Below are positions 10,876 to 16,804 of a DNA stretch of 39,611 nucleotides, one piece after another. The stretch comes from Acinetobacter phage vB_Aba_01KA. Both the position numbers and the translations under genes were made by a program. How positions within the stretch are numbered: position 1 is the first letter of the stretch; each line of letters starts with the position of its first letter. Location: sequence record PV615262.1; one strand, given 5' to 3'. The notes under the pieces are model-generated. The model worked only from the letters and a program-made list of their open reading frames with translations. It made no database searches and was not told the origin of the DNA.

Positions 10876-11315
10876 CGCAATCATGGTAACGATTCATGAG
10901 CGGAAGACCTAAGGTCAGTACGTGGATAAAGACCCACTCTACTGACCTTAGCTACTGTAGTCAAGGACTTTAGGTAACACCTTAATAGAAGCTCACTTAG
11001 GGTCATCCTACTTATTGGTCTATCCTAGTGTCGCCTGACCTACGGTCCTTGACCTACAGTGGCTGTGGCCTACAGTAGTGACGATGAGTTTTGGACCAAA
11101 AGTTTGAGACCACATCTCACAGTTCAAGAACCTCAAGTCTCCCCCATAGGCCCTCTTTAAGTCCAGACCAAAGGCCCTACCCTTGGACCGATGGTCAAGA
11201 CTTCAGGTCAACGATAGGTCTAGGCTATGGCTTAGGGTGGAGACGATAGGTAGAGGCTATAGGTCTTCTTTGAGTCTCTATCTGTATAGTGTTATAGTAT
11301 AACATTACGTCCTAC

Positions 11316-11398
11316 TACCTACAGTCTAACTACCTACAGTCTAACTACCTACAGTCACAACCATAAGACACCAACACCTACAGTCATAGACCTACAGT
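11316..11398 (+). repeat. tandem/dispersed CCTACAGT-containing short repeats in the terminal-repeat-adjacent region
   Basis: 15-bp unit TACCTACAGTCTAAC about three times in tandem (11316-11360), further CCTACAGT copies at 11377-11398 and 11051-11078; analogous in position to the CCTAAAG arrays near the T7 left end. Confidence 0.6.
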
Positions 11399-11451
11399 TA
11401 ATAGACACAAAGCTATAGACTTAAGGTCAAAGACATGTTAGTCAAAGACTA

Positions 11452-11474
11452 TATCCTCTTAGTCACTATGGGGC
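11452..11474 (+). promoter_or_regulatory. degenerate phage-promoter-like sequence (possible phiOL equivalent)
   Basis: TCTTAGTCACTATGGGGCC keeps the TCACTAT core but diverges at flanking positions; followed by an AT-rich stretch and the A1-like promoter, as for T7 phiOL. Confidence 0.3.
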
Positions 11475-11510
11475 CGACGATAGCTTAATCAATATTATTT
11501 AAATAACCTA

Positions 11511-11539
11511 TTGACTATAGGTCCAGACTATGGCTTAAT
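11511..11539 (+). promoter_or_regulatory. candidate host sigma70 promoter (A1-like)
   Basis: -35 TTGACT at 11511-11516 in a context resembling T7 A1 (TTGACT...TATAGG); -10 is weak (CTTAAT, 17-nt spacer). Confidence 0.35.
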
Positions 11540-11651
11540 AGCTTCCGTCAACACGACACGGCAACAACCGGATAGTGAAGACGCCGTGTCATCACGGTTA
11601 AGTAGACAGCCTGATAAGTCATACGAACAACAGGCAGATGACAGAAAGTAG

Positions 11652-11681
11652 TTGACAGGCAGTAACGACTTAAAGTAATAT
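11652..11681 (+). promoter_or_regulatory. host sigma70 early promoter (A2/A3-like)
   Basis: -35 TTGACA at 11652-11657, 18-nt spacer, -10 TAATAT at 11676-11681, followed by GTACCACAT as in T7 A3; upstream GGTTAAGTAGACAGCCTGATAAGTC is near-identical to the T7 early promoter region as I recall it. Confidence 0.55.
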
Positions 11682-11800
11682 GTACCACATCAACACGAAA
11701 CAACGGTGATGACCAACACTGAAATGGTCTACCTGAAGTCCTCTGACTGAAGGGAATGCTCTTTAACAATCTGGATAAACTCTTAATGTGCGCCGATAGC

Positions 11801-11857
11801 GATTAACTACAGGGCCTTTTAGTCTACATCTGAAGGCCCTGACTGATAGTCACTAAC
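11801..11857 (+). promoter_or_regulatory. RNA hairpin upstream of the first early gene (RNase III site, R0.3-like)
   Basis: GATTAACTAC-CAGGGCC-loop-GGCCCTG-ACTGATAGTCACTAAC; 7-bp stem; second copy at 12126-12175 has the same flanks and a covarying stem. Confidence 0.5.
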
Positions 11858-11866
11858 TTAACGCGG

Positions 11867-12121
11867 ATGGACACTATGAAACACTTAAGCACAATCACTA
11901 ATCGCAATGAAGTATTCGTGAACACTAAAGGTTATGCGTGGATTCAGCTTAAAGAGATGACAGGAGCGCGTCACCGTGTGGTAGTGCGCAAGGTATCAAG
12001 CAAGCAGTTCAGCAACTACAGCGTAGATACTGTGCGTATAGACAACGAGACATACCTGATAGACTCGCAGATAACCGTGAGTCCTACAGTGGGCGTCTCA
12101 GCTCCTTATTTCGCTAACTGA
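11867..12121 (+). CDS. hypothetical early protein (84 aa; start may be 11876)
   Basis: First ORF after the host promoters and R0.3-like hairpin; no motif I recognise. Confidence 0.5.
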   Translation: MDTMKHLSTITNRNEVFVNTKGYAWIQLKEMTGARHRVVVRKVSSKQFSNYSVDTVRIDNETYLIDSQITVSPTVGVSAPYFAN

Positions 12122-12125
12122 GAGT

Positions 12126-12175
12126 GATTAACTACAGGTCGTTAGCTTATAGCGGCCTGACTGATAGTCACTAAC
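12126..12175 (+). promoter_or_regulatory. second copy of the early-region RNA hairpin (RNase III-like)
   Basis: GATTAACTACAGGTCG-loop-CGGCCTGACTGATAGTCACTAAC; stem CAGGUCG/CGGCCUG including a G-U pair. Confidence 0.5.
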
Positions 12176-12193
12176 AACTGAGAGGATATAACT

Positions 12194-12691
12194 ATGGAAC
12201 GTAACGCTAACGCATACTATGAGCTGCTGGCTGCAACCGTTGAGGCATTTATCGAGCGTATTCAGTACGACCACCTGACTAAAGATGATGACTACAGCGA
12301 TGCGCTGCATGAGGTCGTAGACAGTCAGGTCCCGCTCTATTACCACGAGATTTTCACGGTGATGGCTGCTGATGGTATAGACCACGAGTTCGAAGACTCT
12401 GGGCTGATGCCTGAAACCAAAGACGTAACGCGTATCCTACAAGCTCGCATCTATGAGGCACTTTATAACGACGTGTCTAATAGCTTGGATGTAGTCTGGT
12501 TTGAGGATGAAGAGGCAGACGAAGAGGATGAATATTGGGTAGTTGACGCTAAAACAGGCGAACTAATTGTGCAATCTGTAGCTCTTGAGGTCGCTACTGC
12601 ATGTGCCGAGGTCAGCTATGCGGCAGGTCGCCACCTGAAGGTGGAAGACATCAATGATAACGTAGTGTTCGACCCTGAGGACTGCGAGTGA
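12194..12691 (+). CDS. ocr: Ocr-like DNA-mimic anti-restriction protein (T7 gp0.3 homolog) with a ~50-aa C-terminal extension
   Basis: [43 protein letters not shown] aligns with T7 Ocr ([43 protein letters not shown]); acidic run [11 protein letters not shown]; 165 aa versus 117 aa in T7. Confidence 0.8.
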
Positions 12692-12852
12692 TGATAACTT
12701 ACGGTCTCTGCCAGCACCACGTCACCATCGCCCGGATTATGGTCAAGACCGGGCGGTTAACCCATGATGAGACTATGCGTCTCCTGAAAGCGGTCTACGA
12801 GGGCCGCAAGTGCATTCACGATAGTCTACACGCTGAGGATAAACCACAATGA
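12691..12852 (+). CDS. small early protein, possible T7 gp0.4 (FtsZ inhibitor) homolog
   Basis: 53 aa; ATG overlaps the ocr stop (ATGA); ...YGL...LKAVYEGRKCI resembles T7 gp0.4 (...YGL...LKELYENNKAI) as I recall it. Confidence 0.4.
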   Translation: MITYGLCQHHVTIARIMVKTGRLTHDETMRLLKAVYEGRKCIHDSLHAEDKPQ

Positions 12853-12998
12853 AACGATACGCTATACAAATTCCGGGATGGTGTTACACAATGACTTGCT
12901 ACGGATACAACGAGAGAGACGCAAGATCCCGATTCCGTGCCCAGCAAGGTTTCGGTAAACGTCTACCAAATGGTACGGCTATCTGGGAGATTGACTAA
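12849..12998 (+). CDS. hypothetical small early protein (49 aa)
   Basis: ATG overlaps the previous stop (ATGA); MKRYAIQIPGWCYTMTCYGYNERDARSRF...; below the track cutoff. Confidence 0.35.
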   Translation: MKRYAIQIPGWCYTMTCYGYNERDARSRFRAQQGFGKRLPNGTAIWEID

Positions 12999-12999
12999 C

Positions 13000-13125
13000 A
13001 TGTACCAGATAACTTATAGCAGTGAACAGGCGTTCTACGATGGGTGCTACGAGATGATGAAGCGCGGTGCTTGCTACGTGGCTAATCACCATAGCCTGAC
13101 CATAACGCTGACAGGCGGGTACTGA
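13000..13125 (+). CDS. hypothetical small early protein (41 aa from ATG 13000)
   Basis: In frame with track ORF 12937-13125, but the start at 13000 follows GGGAGA and avoids overlap with the preceding ORF. Confidence 0.35.
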   Translation: MYQITYSSEQAFYDGCYEMMKRGACYVANHHSLTITLTGGY

Positions 13126-13281
13126 GTGATAGACGAGAGGTCATCGACTGATAGGTGGCCTCAAAGATTACCACTTAAATTGATAGAGGTTAACTATGAG
13201 TGTTGGACATTGGGTATGCTTATCTCCGGTCATCTTTCTGATAGCTTGGGGGATATACGACTGTATTAAACGGAAATCACT

Positions 13282-13479
13282 ATGAGTCTTGCACTATTGA
13301 TAGCCATAGGCTATGGACTTATCGCCTACGTGCTGGTGAGAGACATCAACAAAGCGCGTAAAGTCTACAAATTCAACTATGTATGTCTGGGCCGCTGGAC
13401 TGTACGTCAACCTAATGGACGATTCATGCGCAACTTAGCGAACGTCTGGGATATAGCAACTATTGGTAGCAAACTGTAA
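13282..13479 (+). CDS. hypothetical early protein with N-terminal transmembrane segment (65 aa)
   Basis: MSLALLIAIGYGLIAYVLV hydrophobic N-terminus; 3' end lies in direct-repeat copy 1. Confidence 0.5.
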   Translation: MSLALLIAIGYGLIAYVLVRDINKARKVYKFNYVCLGRWTVRQPNGRFMRNLANVWDIATIGSKL

Positions 13480-13483
13480 TGAA
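13434..13483 (+). repeat. direct repeat copy 1 (~50 bp, about 46/50 identical to 13722-13771)
   Basis: CTTAGCGAACGTCTGGGATATAGCAACTATTGGTAGCAAACTGTAATGAA; covers the last 14 codons and stop of the 13282-13479 ORF and the ATG of the next ORF. Confidence 0.8.
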
Positions 13484-13700
13484 CATAATTAAGGCAGCCG
13501 CGAAGTCTATTAGCGCCATGTTCCCACCACGGCAAGAGGTATGTACAGACCACAAGTTCGTACTATCCTGCGTTGTCGGCGACGAGTTTGACGGTTTTGA
13601 TAAGCTCGTTGTATGTGATTATTGTGGTCAAGAAGCTATACAGCACTCAAACGGTAAATTCGAACTAATTAACGAGGAAGGGGAAGGCGATGGTGAATAA
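13479..13700 (+). CDS. hypothetical small Cys-rich (zinc-ribbon-like) early protein, 73 aa
   Basis: Two Cys pairs (C..HKFVLSC and CDYC) and acidic C-terminus EEGEGDGE; gene is bracketed by the ~50-bp direct repeats. Confidence 0.5.
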   Translation: MNIIKAAAKSISAMFPPRQEVCTDHKFVLSCVVGDEFDGFDKLVVCDYCGQEAIQHSNGKFELINEEGEGDGE

Positions 13701-13721
13701 CAAAAACAACGTATTTGAATA

Positions 13722-13771
13722 CTTGGCGAACGTCTGGGATATAGCAACACTTGGGAGCAAACTGTAATGAA
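13722..13771 (+). repeat. direct repeat copy 2
   Basis: CTTGGCGAACGTCTGGGATATAGCAACACTTGGGAGCAAACTGTAATGAA; here non-coding but still encodes the relic peptide LANVWDIATLGSKL-stop followed by the ATG of ORF 13767. Confidence 0.8.
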
Positions 13772-14027
13772 AACCGTATACATTAACAAACCATCTATCC
13801 GTAGCCGTGTAGAGCAAATACAGCGTGACGAGTTCTTACATCGCCGCATGAAGGCTGAGGGCCATGAGTCCGAACTGATGTGTCTGGCGTATGGTGGACG
13901 ACCGATCACTGACGATGGTAAACTTCTAGTCTCAGGCTGGAAGGCGATGGACCAACGGTCAACCATCAAGCACACGACCAATGGTGACTTCAGCCATCTC
14001 CACGCTAACCAACTGATATGCAAGTGA
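13767..14027 (+). CDS. hypothetical early protein (86 aa)
   Basis: ORF starting at the ATG in repeat copy 2; no recognisable motif. Confidence 0.45.
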   Translation: MKTVYINKPSIRSRVEQIQRDEFLHRRMKAEGHESELMCLAYGGRPITDDGKLLVSGWKAMDQRSTIKHTTNGDFSHLHANQLICK

Positions 14028-14033
14028 TTATGA

Positions 14034-14056
14034 CTTAACTATCACTATAGGACTAA
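14034..14056 (+). promoter_or_regulatory. phage RNA polymerase promoter immediately upstream of the RNA polymerase gene
   Basis: CTTAACTATCACTATAGGACTAA, full consensus; +1 G about 14050, 75 nt upstream of the gene 1 ATG; leader contains a direct repeat AAGTGAAAGAC at 14071-14081 and 14095-14105. Confidence 0.7.
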
Positions 14057-14124
14057 AGGTCTAAGACTACAAGTGAAAGACCAAAGAGACTCTAAGTGAA
14101 AGACTAATAACAAGGACTTTAAGT

Positions 14125-16804
14125 ATGAGCGTCATCTCTATTGACAAACACGACTTCTCTGATGTGTCGAACGCCATTGAGCCGTTTAACCTGCTGGCTG
14201 ACCACTACGGGCAAGACCTTGCAGTCAAACAGCTTCAGCTTGAGCATGAGGCATACACTGAAGGCGAGCGACGTTTCATCAAAAACCTTGAGCGCCAGAC
14301 TGAGCGCGGGGAACTGGCAGACAATCAGGTCGCCAAGCCTTTGATGCAGACTCTGGTTCCTAAGATTGCGCAAGCCGTCAGGGAGTGGCATGAAGGTCCA
14401 GACGGGAAGCTGTCAACCTCTCGTCCTAGCGTAGCGTTCACCATGTTAAGCACCGAAGAGAAGGCCGTCAAGGACCGCTCTCTGCGTATCTCTTGCGAGT
14501 CTGCTGCGGTCATCATACTGAAGGTCATACTCTCCAAGCTGGTAAAGCCTGAAGGGATACCGATTACACCGATGGCCTCCGCGATAGGTCGCACACTTGA
14601 GGACGAAATCCGCTTCGGTCGCATCCGTGACAAGGAGAAGGAGCACTTCAAGAAGGCGATAGCTGAGAACTTGAACAAGCGAGCTGGGGCATCCTACAAG
14701 AAAGCCTACATGCAAGCGGTCGAGACATCCATGCTGGAGCAAGGCCAACTGGAAGATGCGTGGGGACTTGGAGTCCTACAGAGGCTGTCCACGTGGGCAT
14801 CAAGATGCTGGAGATTGTCATCCAGTCAACACAACTGGTCGAGCTTAAGCGGTACGGTGCTGGCAATGCAGCGGCTGACGTAGAGATGGTCCACCTGTCA
14901 GACTTCTGGGTCAAGAAGATGGCACAACGAGGATTCAGCCTTGCGGGTATCGCTCCAGTCTACCAGCCTTGCGTCGTTCCACCTAAGCAGTGGACTGGTG
15001 TCGTAGGTGGTGGGTACTGGGCCAAAGGTCGCAGACCGTTACCATTGATTCGCTTAGGGTCTAAATCAGCGGTGGCACGTTATGAAGACGTATACATGCC
15101 TGAAGTCTATGAAGCTGTGAATATCATCCAGAATACACCTTGGAAAGTGAACAAGAAGGTACTGGACGTGGTGAACATGGTCGAGAAGCTGAACAACACG
15201 CCTATTGATGACATCCCTCAGATGGAGCCACTGAAGCCTGAAGACTATGCGGGTGAGACCGAGGAGGAACTAAAGGCATGGAAGAAGCTGCTGCTGGTAT
15301 CTATCGCCGCGAGAAGGCCAGACAGTCACGCAGATTATCACTGAGCTTTATCGTCAACCAAGCGAATAAGTTCTCTCAGTTCAAGGCCATCTGGTTTCCA
15401 TACAACATGGACTGGCGCGGTCGAGTCTACGCTGTGCCGATGTTCAACCCACAGGGTAACGACATGCAGAAGGGTCTCCTGACTCTGGCAGTCGGTAAGC
15501 CTATTGGTGCTGACGGTTTCAAATGGCTGAAGGTCCATGGAGCAAACTGCGCGGGTGTCGATAAAGTCACCTTTGATGAGCGCATCAAGTGGGTGGAAGA
15601 CAACCACGACAACATTATGGCTGCTGCTAAGGCACCGATGGATAGCATTGAGTGGTGGGGCAAGTTCAGACTCTCCGTTCTGCTTCCTTGCGTTCTGCTT
15701 CGAGTATGCTGGTGTAATGCACCACGGATTGTCTTACTCCTGCTCACTGCCGATAGCGTTCGATGGGTCATGCTCAGGGATTCAGCACTTTAGCGCGATG
15801 CTTCGTGATCACGTCGGTGGACATGCAGTAAACCTAACGCCTTCCGGTAAGGTCCAAGACATCTACCGAATCGTTTCCGACCGCATTGAGGAAGAGCTTA
15901 AAGTCCTGCTGGTTAACGGCACGGACAACGAGATGGTAACTCACGAGGACAAGAAACTGGTGAGATTACCGAACGCCTCAAGCTGGGGACACGAGAGCTG
16001 GCCCGGCAGTGGCTGACTTACGGTATGTCACGCAAGGTCACTAAGCGTTCAGTAATGACTCTGGCCTATGGGTCGAAAGAGTACGGCTTCGCAGACCAAG
16101 TTTATGAGGACATCGTGATGCCAGCGATTGACTCAGGGTCTGGCGCTATGTTCACCGAGCCAAGCCAAGCGTCTCGCTTCATGGCTAAGATGATTTGGGA
16201 AGCTGTGAGCGTGACCGTAGTTGCTGCGGTTGACGCGATGAAGTGGCTTCAGGGTGCTGCCAAGCTGCTGGCTGCTGAAGTGAAGGACAAGAAGACTGGA
16301 GAAATCCTGAAGCCTTGCCTTCCGGTACACTGGGTAACACCTGATGGTTTCCCGGTATGGCAGGAATACCGCAAGAAGGATACCACTCGTCTGAACCTGA
16401 TGTTCTTAGGGTCATTCAACCTTCAGCCTACGGTCAACAAAGGCATGAAGAAAGAGCTGGACAAGCACAAGCAGGAGTCAGGCATTAGCCCGAACTTCGT
16501 CCACTCACAAGATGGTAGCCACCTACGCAAGACTGTAGTACACACGCATCGCAAGTATGGCGTGATGTCATTCGCAGTGATTCACGATAGCTTCGGGACC
16601 ATCCCTGCTGACGCTGAGTATCTGTTCCGTGGCGTCCGTGAGACGATGGTCGAGACCTACCGCGACAACGATGTGCTGCTTGACTTCTACGAGCAGTTCG
16701 AATGCCAGCTTCACGAGAGTCAGCGCGACAAGTTGCCTGAGCTTCCGAAGAAAGGTAAACTGAATATCGAAGACATCTTGTCTTCAGACTTTGCATTCGC
16801 TTAA
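14125..16804 (+). CDS. T7-type single-subunit DNA-directed RNA polymerase (gene 1), interrupted by about four single-base indels
   Basis: Five colinear pieces (14125-14883, 14760-15344, 15278-15793, 15537-16016, 16025-16804) match T7 RNAP throughout (FNLLADHYG, ARFGRIRD, PCVVPPK, AIWFPYNMDWRGRVYAV, DGSCSGIQHFSAM, HDSFGT, ends SDFAFA). Shifts near 14767 (G run), 15287 (A run), 15665 and 15955 (A run). Confidence 0.9.

Follow-up and report, generated by a model that had tools for sequence, protein, structure and literature searches.

How does a small gene come to lie between two nearly identical stretches of DNA in the early region of a phage genome, and where did that gene come from? The question is raised by the 39,611-nucleotide (nt) sequence of Acinetobacter phage vB_Aba_01KA (accession PV615262.1; hereafter the window, by which we mean the whole stretch of DNA analyzed). 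Here an open reading frame (ORF) for a protein of 73 amino acids (aa) separates homologs of the early genes gp0.37 and gp0.38 and is bracketed by a direct repeat. An initial annotation had placed a repeat of ~50 base pairs (bp) at 13434-13483 and 13722-13771 and had read the locus as a gene gained by recombination between short homologies. We find that the repeat-bracketed segment very probably represents an early-gene cassette that was acquired horizontally, along with the scar left by the recombination. The foreign part of the segment belongs to the lineage of Kagunavirus, a genus of siphophages (Guernseyvirinae), whereas the recipient is a podovirus of the genus Kayfunavirus (K1F-like Studiervirinae).

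A repeat search covering positions 12500-14800 returned a pair of direct repeats of 51 nt (13433-13483 and 13721-13771), identical at 47 of 51 positions (92%) and spaced 288 nt from start to start. The initial annotation was therefore correct to within 1 nt about the repeat, and the ORF listing agrees with it that the first copy encodes the C terminus of the ORF at 13282-13479 (the gp0.37 homolog) and that a 73-aa ORF (13479-13700) lies between the copies. Its description of the second copy as intergenic is wrong: This copy forms the 3′ half of a 25-codon ORF. So similar a pair has a chance expectation of ~3e-15 in 39.6 kb, and a search of both strands of the window for a third copy found none.

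The presence of the segment varies among close relatives, and by a precise length. In phages TM1, ASO2B, SH3, vB_EcoP_F, Mt1B1_P3, phiHAO2-2, and K1F, gp0.37 leads directly into gp0.38 via a CTGTAATG stop-start overlap, and the 51-nt sequence is present in a single copy. A MAFFT alignment places one gap of exactly 288 nt in TM1, ASO2B, and vB_EcoP_F, and deletion between the repeats in silico leaves a 458-nt sequence colinear with that of ASO2B, from which it differs by 15 mismatches and by no insertions or deletions (indels). Close relatives without the insert thus exist, and the site at which they lack it is precisely definable. The two genes are uninterrupted in at least 120 of 204 matching records, K1F included, and the uninterrupted junction spans phages of Escherichia, Salmonella, Citrobacter, Enterobacter, and Cronobacter. 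The 73-aa gene occupies this junction in just three records: Escherichia phage vB_Eco_1RS (1RS), AN24P4, and AN17P1. No further window-type arrangement was found in IMG/VR, JGI metagenome, and GTDB genome scans or in an E. coli genome collection, which returned Kagunavirus-type contexts or nothing. The backbone on either side of the insert is ASO2B/Mt1B1_P3-like, with 100% and 99.4% identity over 13090-13281 and 98-99% over 13851-14124. Both the gain of the gene, absent from K1F and at least 120 related records that are exactly 288 nt shorter there, and the repeat-bounded polymorphism anticipated by the initial annotation are supported by this comparison.

The 288 extra nt consist of 247 nt of Kagunavirus-type DNA and 41 nt that duplicate the 3′ end of gp0.37 (13726-13766). 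The Kagunavirus-type segment begins with the 73-aa gene, whose ATG overlaps the gp0.37 stop codon (TAATG), and ends with a stump of 12 codons (MVNNKNNVFEYL) from the gene that lies downstream in the donor. This stump is in frame with the duplicated end of gp0.37, and together they make up the chimeric 25-codon ORF, which starts within the 3′ end of the 73-aa gene behind a purine-rich Shine-Dalgarno-like run (GAGGAAGGGGAAGG) and whose TAA overlaps the ATG of gp0.38 at 13767. The first repeat copy is made up mostly of the last 13 codons and stop of gp0.37; the second brings with it the native GGGAG ribosome-binding site of gp0.38 and its TAATG stop-start overlap.

Both joints can be read to the nucleotide. 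At the left joint, recipients read ...CTGTAATGAAAACC (gp0.37 stop and gp0.38 start), the donor reads ...AGATGAACCTAATT, and the window reads ...CTGTAATGAACATAATT, with the common ATGAA as the joint. At the right joint, the donor remnant ends ...GAATACTTG, gp0.37 reads ...CGCAACTTAGCGAACG, and the window reads ...GAATACTTGGCGAACG. The joints therefore coincide with microhomologies of 5-6 nt (ATGAA on the left and ACTT(A/G)G on the right), not with long homology or recombinase sites. The 51-nt repeat itself is composed of the 6 nt of right-joint microhomology (ACTTRG), 40 nt of duplicated gp0.37, and the 5 nt of left-joint microhomology (ATGAA). The ~50-bp repeats are thus a product of the event, whose two joints are 41 nt out of register, and not the homology that mediated recombination. 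Of the earlier claim of a gene gained by recombination between short homologies, the gain stands, but the recombining homologies are the microhomologies at the joints rather than the repeats.

An arrangement known from no second isolate might also be an assembly artifact, in which two co-occurring Kayfunaviruses were joined into a chimera or a repeat was collapsed or expanded, and the same assembly does carry frameshifts. Relative to ASO2B, 1-nt deletions near 14766 and 15287 (GGGGAAC to GGGGAC and GAAGGCT to GAAGCT) break the gene for the phage RNA polymerase (RNAP; 14125-16800) into several ORFs. Shared with the 1RS record, which annotates four RNAP fragments, these deletions in an essential gene almost certainly stem from errors of sequencing or assembly. 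The window and 1RS disagree at eight places between 12997 and 15706, each time by a small change and in most cases by a 1-nt indel. Given such single-base errors in the assembly, we are less sure of individual nucleotides within the repeat than of the 288-nt structure. However, the right joint (TACTTG/GCGAAC) is an in-frame microhomology of 4-6 nt, and since assemblers join through long exact overlaps, reads must span it. Moreover, gp0.37, the 73-aa gene, the 25-codon ORF, and gp0.38 all have intact reading frames, and stop-start overlaps link the four. We regard an artifact as highly improbable.

The two repeat copies differ in a way that bears on their origin. Copy 1 is 1 nt off the gp0.37 3′-end allele of ASO2B, vB_EcoP_F, Mt1B1_P3, and phiHAO2-2, and the 40-nt core of copy 2 has 100% identity to the allele of SH3, LM33_P1, and PDP351P4. 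Three of the four differences between the copies are synonymous in the gp0.37 frame, and the fourth is an Ile/Leu replacement. That the copies carry different natural gp0.37 alleles fits recombination among co-circulating genomes; a tandem duplication in place, followed by drift, was rejected for the same reason. We also rejected a transposon or an integrase-borne element, since neither inverted repeats nor integrase or transposase ORFs were found in 12500-14800.

What points to the donor lineage is both the 73-aa gene and the stump that follows it. At the DNA level the insert matches Kagunavirus K1ind1 at 76.5% over 97% of its length, BEU35 at 82.7%, many others at ~80% over the core, and three Kagunavirus-like metagenomic or viral contigs (L012, L016, and L017) at 83% over 224-225 nt, with homology starting from the ATG. 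In K1ind1, BEU35, and L012, the stop of the 73-aa gene overlaps the start of a larger, full-length gene of family phrog_6094 (which begins MVSNKNEVFEHL / MVSNKNEVFEHLIDQL in K1ind1, MVSSKNEVFEYL / MVSSKNEVFEYLIDQL in BEU35, and MVNNNDAVIEYL / MVNNNDAVIEYLLNQL in L012), and it is 12 codons of this downstream gene that were carried along into the window. The phrog_6094 gene is full length only in Kagunaviruses. Because the stump is truncated in the podovirus and the gene is full length in the siphoviruses, we place the direction of transfer from Kagunavirus to Kayfunavirus. In K1ind1, BEU35, Golestan, and L017, the 73-aa gene is immediately preceded by a sigma-70-type promoter and a ribosome-binding site, and in the Kagunavirus siphoviruses it is the first gene behind the early promoter; in Golestan it also adjoins a divergent cro-like repressor gene. 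Since no sampled Kagunavirus is closer than 83%, with a synonymous divergence (dS) of ~1, the actual donor is unsampled.

Three side observations concern these donor genomes. The phrog_6094 gene (K1ind1 1702-2214; BEU35 1657-2145; L012 4197-4538) encodes a coiled-coil-like N-terminal half and several CxxC/Cx(n)C motifs toward the C terminus. In Golestan-type Kagunaviruses an unrelated acidic protein takes its place. In both BEU35 (OM632668.1) and BEU33 (OM632667.1), DNA and protein searches match the 73-aa gene at two places, and these genomes may carry a second copy or paralog.

The same comparisons can be read in the opposite direction, with the insert ancestral and the insert-free relatives having lost the gene by recombination between the 51-nt repeats. 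T7-type phages do delete between short direct repeats (Studier 1979 and Kong & Masker 1994, as cited in PMC5630979), and the in silico deletion reproduces the common gp0.37-gp0.38 arrangement exactly, with no indels. Such a history, however, has to contend with the 12-codon stump in the insert, whose gene is found at full length in Kagunaviruses only, and with an uninterrupted junction in phages of five host genera. The repeat-bearing form occurs in one record only, its two copies are different alleles, and insert-bearing genomes make up three of ~200 records, which suggests a small derived tip. We consider an ancestral insert very unlikely; secondary loss in some lineages is possible.

Acquisition, which we prefer, probably proceeded as follows. 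Illegitimate recombination or template switching, guided by microhomology, would have joined a 247-nt piece native to Kagunavirus into a K1F-like Kayfunavirus at its gp0.37/gp0.38 boundary. At the left joint (ATGAA), the ATG of the cassette takes over the TAATG stop-start overlap after gp0.37, and through this ATG the 73-aa gene may be translated by coupling to gp0.37. The right joint (ACTTRG) falls within gp0.37, at a recipient position 41 nt 5′ of the left joint, and this offset between the joints duplicated the final 41 nt of gp0.37. Two template switches would give this geometry, as would joining to two different genome copies. The duplication restores the native ribosome-binding site and stop-start overlap of gp0.38, so that four reading frames are chained as in the parents, and the in-frame donor leftover yields a 25-codon ORF, from which ribosomes may move on to gp0.38 by translational coupling.

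Was the cassette captured in the form in which it is found in the window? AN24P4 and AN17P1 have, at the same junction, a cassette that is 94.9% identical to that of the window; it begins and ends at the same donor positions (the ATG and codon 12 of the downstream gene) but has different recipient joints and no second repeat copy. As these two genomes lack the repeat, it is not a general feature of the cassette. On the left side they have 51 extra bp between gp0.37 and the cassette; on the right side the 12-codon stump runs in frame into a long-form gp0.38 at ...YL/VTGYRHG (the slash marks the joint), giving a 97-aa protein. The two forms could be independent captures from closely related Kagunavirus donors, guided by microhomology to the same end points. 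Their left and right recipient joints are wholly different, the donor end points are microhomologies to each recipient (ATG/ATGAA; TACTTG vs. CTACTGG or AACTTAG), and capture has clearly been repeated within Kayfunavirus. However, the two forms share the donor breakpoint to the nucleotide at either end, their inserts resemble each other as closely as the flanking backbones do and have ≤83% identity to any sampled Kagunavirus, and both alleles share the N-terminal variant MNIIKAA. Since the donor end points are shared and insert identity equals backbone identity, we favor one capture followed by relocation into another backbone, and we think independent captures unlikely. The cassette would probably have moved from an AN24P4-like Kayfunavirus into an ASO2B/Mt1B1_P3-like backbone; microhomologies available for this step are GTAATGAA on the left (8 nt) and ACTTGGTGA/ACTTAGCGA on the right (7 of 9 nt).

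The 51 extra bp of AN24P4 found no match in Kagunavirus upstream regions. They are an internally deleted remnant (MRKTCSK/RTQISSGE, 15 codons; AN24P4 locus 1890-1937) of an Endonuclease VII-type gene, present in AN17P1 as well. Phage IMM-002 has this gene intact at exactly the gp0.37/gp0.38 boundary (140 aa, Pfam PF02945, 1.7e-25; locus 1221-1643), and CHRF_10023.2 retains a 35-aa in-frame Endonuclease_7 remnant (locus 1221-1328). The remnants in relatives have internal deletions at short repeats, which suggests that the boundary may be the home site of a homing endonuclease that decays. Because the Endonuclease_7 gene and its remnants also occupy it, the boundary is a recurrent insertion site.

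Double-strand breaks made by such a free-standing endonuclease may have driven the event: During co-infection the enzyme would have cut genomes that lack its gene, and sloppy repair would have captured the cassette and duplicated the target. The intact gene at the exact boundary in IMM-002, the remnant in CHRF_10023.2, and the one that adjoins the cassette on its 5′ side in AN24P4 and AN17P1 are consistent with this, as is the stimulation of repeat-mediated rearrangement in T7 by breaks (Kong & Masker 1994, as cited in PMC5630979). Yet there is no cleavage specificity on record for the enzyme, the window has neither a nuclease gene nor a remnant in the insert or its neighborhood, and the co-location may merely reflect a permissive gene boundary. 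A driving role for the endonuclease seems to us rather improbable; the idea complements capture by microhomology-guided joining and does not replace it.

Several points weigh against the history that we prefer. The repeat-bearing arrangement is found in one isolate only (1RS and the window), in an assembly with indel errors, and the 25-codon ORF is a predicted one. The closest sampled Kagunavirus allele is only 83% identical to that of the window, with dS ~1, and the direction of transfer depends on a truncated remnant of 12 codons. Lastly, the donor breakpoint on the right, common to the window and AN24P4, would fit one capture plus relocation and two independent microhomology events alike.

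The 73-aa gene entered Kayfunavirus at another slot as well. A different allele of the family, with the C terminus ...DDSLTEGDGE, lies upstream of gp0.37 in about 28 Kayfunavirus records (LM33_P1, HC12, PM129, and others). The LM33_P1-type cassette is 90.6% identical to Kagunavirus Golestan over 266 nt (LM33_P1 locus 1817-2081; Golestan 1428-1693), a match that takes in the donor ribosome-binding site upstream of the gene and that of the donor's next gene downstream. C-terminal variants pair across the genera, the alleles of the window, AN24P4, and AN17P1 with K1ind1, BEU35, and L012, and the LM33_P1 allele with Golestan. Because this second allele sits at another slot and pairs with Golestan, the gene has crossed from siphovirus to podovirus at least twice. 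In the window, the slot that corresponds to the LM33_P1 cassette site (~12838-13089) is occupied by two unrelated small ORFs.

The 73-aa ORF is a real gene under strong purifying selection, since the ratio of nonsynonymous to synonymous divergence (dN/dS) against Kagunavirus alleles is only 0.04-0.08, at a dS of 1 or more. Its product matches phrog_32657 over residues 1-73 and has the conserved EVCTxHKFVLSC...VCDxCGQE core; proteins of this family are 73-75 aa long and are annotated without a function. Residues 20-52 are almost invariant, the first ~19 are variable, and the tail is acidic. Rather than just the two Cys pairs of the initial annotation, the protein has five candidate metal ligands among the 36 invariant columns of the family alignment: C22, H25, C31, C46, and C49 (C22-x2-H25 ... 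C46-x2-C49, plus C31). The gene is restricted in distribution. A tblastn search found it in 56 of 50,697 phage records, 31 of Kayfunavirus size and 25 of Kagunavirus size and no others, and it is absent from a one-genome-per-species GTDB set and from 5426 complete E. coli genomes.

No described family accounts for the protein. Pfam, NCBIfam, and PDB sequence searches returned no match, and when 1.84 billion representative proteins were searched exhaustively with HMMER, the only matches were its own family and two spurious repeat proteins. An AlphaFold2 model built from a six-sequence alignment has four beta strands, with a mean predicted local distance difference test (pLDDT) score of only 58.7, and structure comparison of this low-confidence model gave no significant match. 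The CxxH...CxxC arrangement suggests that it is probably a small early protein that binds zinc, and it may act as a zinc-binding factor on a host target early in infection. Like small zinc-ribbon and zinc-knuckle early proteins of phages, it is ~70 aa long, early, and has its CxxH...CxxC motif at the turns of predicted beta hairpins; unlike them, it matched no described family by sequence or fold, and its zinc site is putative.

A role in anti-defense or host takeover had been read from position, and no family or fold match supports it; in the sequence searches named above, no homology was seen to characterized T7-like proteins of this kind (Ocr, gp0.4, gp0.6, and gp0.7), with which it has just its place in the early region in common. 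From the early position, the expression as first gene in Kagunaviruses, and the repeated capture, we infer that the protein may act on a host target or defense. More specifically, it could be an unrecognized host-takeover or anti-defense factor that is valuable in capsulated or ExPEC-type (extraintestinal pathogenic) E. coli and was captured by Kayfunavirus at least twice (two early slots, two Kagunavirus allelic lineages), a suggestion that we put forward only tentatively. Conserved, found in virulent phages only, early, probably zinc-binding, and repeatedly captured, the gene is a sensible candidate for tests of host targets or counter-defense.

Events of this kind, the capture of mosaic cassettes in the early region of T7-like phages, are already well known. 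As in other mosaic early-region cassettes ("morons" or accessory early genes) of the class I region of T7-like Studiervirinae (gene 0.3/ocr to gene 1), a small non-essential gene lies between conserved early genes, is variably present among close relatives, and is transcribed by the host RNA polymerase before gene 1. In relatives the slot is taken by further inserts, namely the Endonuclease_7 gene and variable gp0.38 N termini. What sets the present case apart from the usual cassettes is that both joints are readable to the nucleotide, that there is a 41-nt target duplication and an in-frame donor stump, and that the donor is of another morphotype and family. What is new, and in our judgment of moderate interest, is the origin of the cassette, its reconstruction to the nucleotide, the hot spot occupied by an endonuclease, and the finding that an uncharacterized Cys/His protein was captured at least twice. 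An event that can be read base by base provides a clean worked example of how early genes are picked up from unrelated phages that share a host.

Exchange of tailspikes and endosialidases has reportedly taken place between phages of the genera Kagunavirus and Kayfunavirus that infect E. coli with capsules or O antigens. The same two host-sharing genera are involved here, but the known cases concern receptor-binding proteins, whereas the present gene encodes a 73-aa early protein found at two early slots. Phages vB_EcoP-22664BS1 and vB_EcoS-22664BS2 both carry the gene, and their shared strain number suggests that they were isolated on the same host.

Deletion between short direct repeats has been described in phage T7 (Studier 1979; Kong & Masker 1994; both as cited in PMC5630979). 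The 51-nt repeat resembles the substrates of such deletions, being a 92%-identical direct repeat at a spacing of 288 nt whose deletion product is the common arrangement. It differs from them in that the repeat arose from an insertion. By analogy, the repeats would make the cassette deletable by T7-type recombination, and one would predict a measurable rate of spontaneous loss in the absence of selection by the host. A cassette that persists would in turn have to be of recent origin or under selection.

Table 1. Coordinates of the repeat copies, the insert, and the surrounding early genes in the window
Feature	Position	Strand	Description
Repeat copy 1	13433-13483	+	ACTTAG, 40-nt gp0.37 3′ core, and ATGAA (also start of the 73-aa gene)
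Repeat copy 2	13721-13771	+	ACTTG from donor remnant; 13726-13766 duplicated gp0.37 3′ end
Kagunavirus-type segment, 247 nt	13479-13725	+	73-aa gene and first 12 codons (13690-13725) of the donor's downstream gene
73-aa early gene, putative zinc site	13479-13700	+	phrog_32657, 1.7e-37
Chimeric 25-codon ORF (MVNNKNNVFEYLANVWDIATLGSKL)	13690-13767	+	12 donor codons in frame with last 13 codons and stop of gp0.37
gp0.37 homolog, 65 aa, hydrophobic N terminus	13282-13479	+	phrog_2385, 2e-31
gp0.38 homolog, short form, 86 aa	13767-14027	+	phrog_7066, 1e-38
ocr-like gene	12194-12691		Followed by several small ORFs before the gp0.37 homolog
Phage promoter-like sequence ...CTATCACTATAGGA	~14038-14055		Between gp0.38 and RNAP gene
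RNA polymerase gene (gene 1)	from 14125		

The wider gene order agrees with the assignment of the recipient (Table 1). The early region is colinear with K1F-like genomes, running from an ocr-like gene through small ORFs to the RNAP gene. As the initial annotation had proposed, the feature lies in the early region, between ocr and gene 1, in the part transcribed by the host RNA polymerase. In total 212 records match parts of the nucleotide sequence of the window, the nearest being 1RS (PV615263.1; 99.8% identity) and the rest comprising a further 211. The gp0.37 homolog has 93-97.5% nucleotide identity to gp0.37 of TM1, ASO2B, SH3, vB_EcoP_F, and AN24P4. The gp0.38 homolog is 97-99% identical to those of ASO2B, vB_EcoP_F, and Mt1B1_P3, and in insert-free relatives this gene stands directly 3′ of gp0.37. 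Across both genes K1F and vB_EcoP_F are 96.9% identical. A scan of 11000-14300 for promoters and terminators gave no more sites than shuffled sequence did, and none convincing within the cassette.

The window is the whole ~39.6-kb genome, circularly permuted relative to the usual T7-like map, with the early region starting at ~11 kb and not at the left end; its orientation is the reverse complement of the 1RS record. Between the promoter-like sequence and the start codon of the RNAP gene lies a tandem 21-nt direct repeat (14064-14107; AGACTACAAGTGAAAGACCAA / AGACTCTAAGTGAAAGACTAA) with a period of 23 nt, which may be a leader or processing element. In gp0.38 (13767-13850 and the homologs in AN24P4, LM33_P1, IMM-002, and others), a C-terminal part of ~58 aa is conserved and the N terminus is swapped, the forms among relatives being 83, 86, 97, 108, and 130 aa long; the 5′ end of this gene is itself a recombination hot spot.

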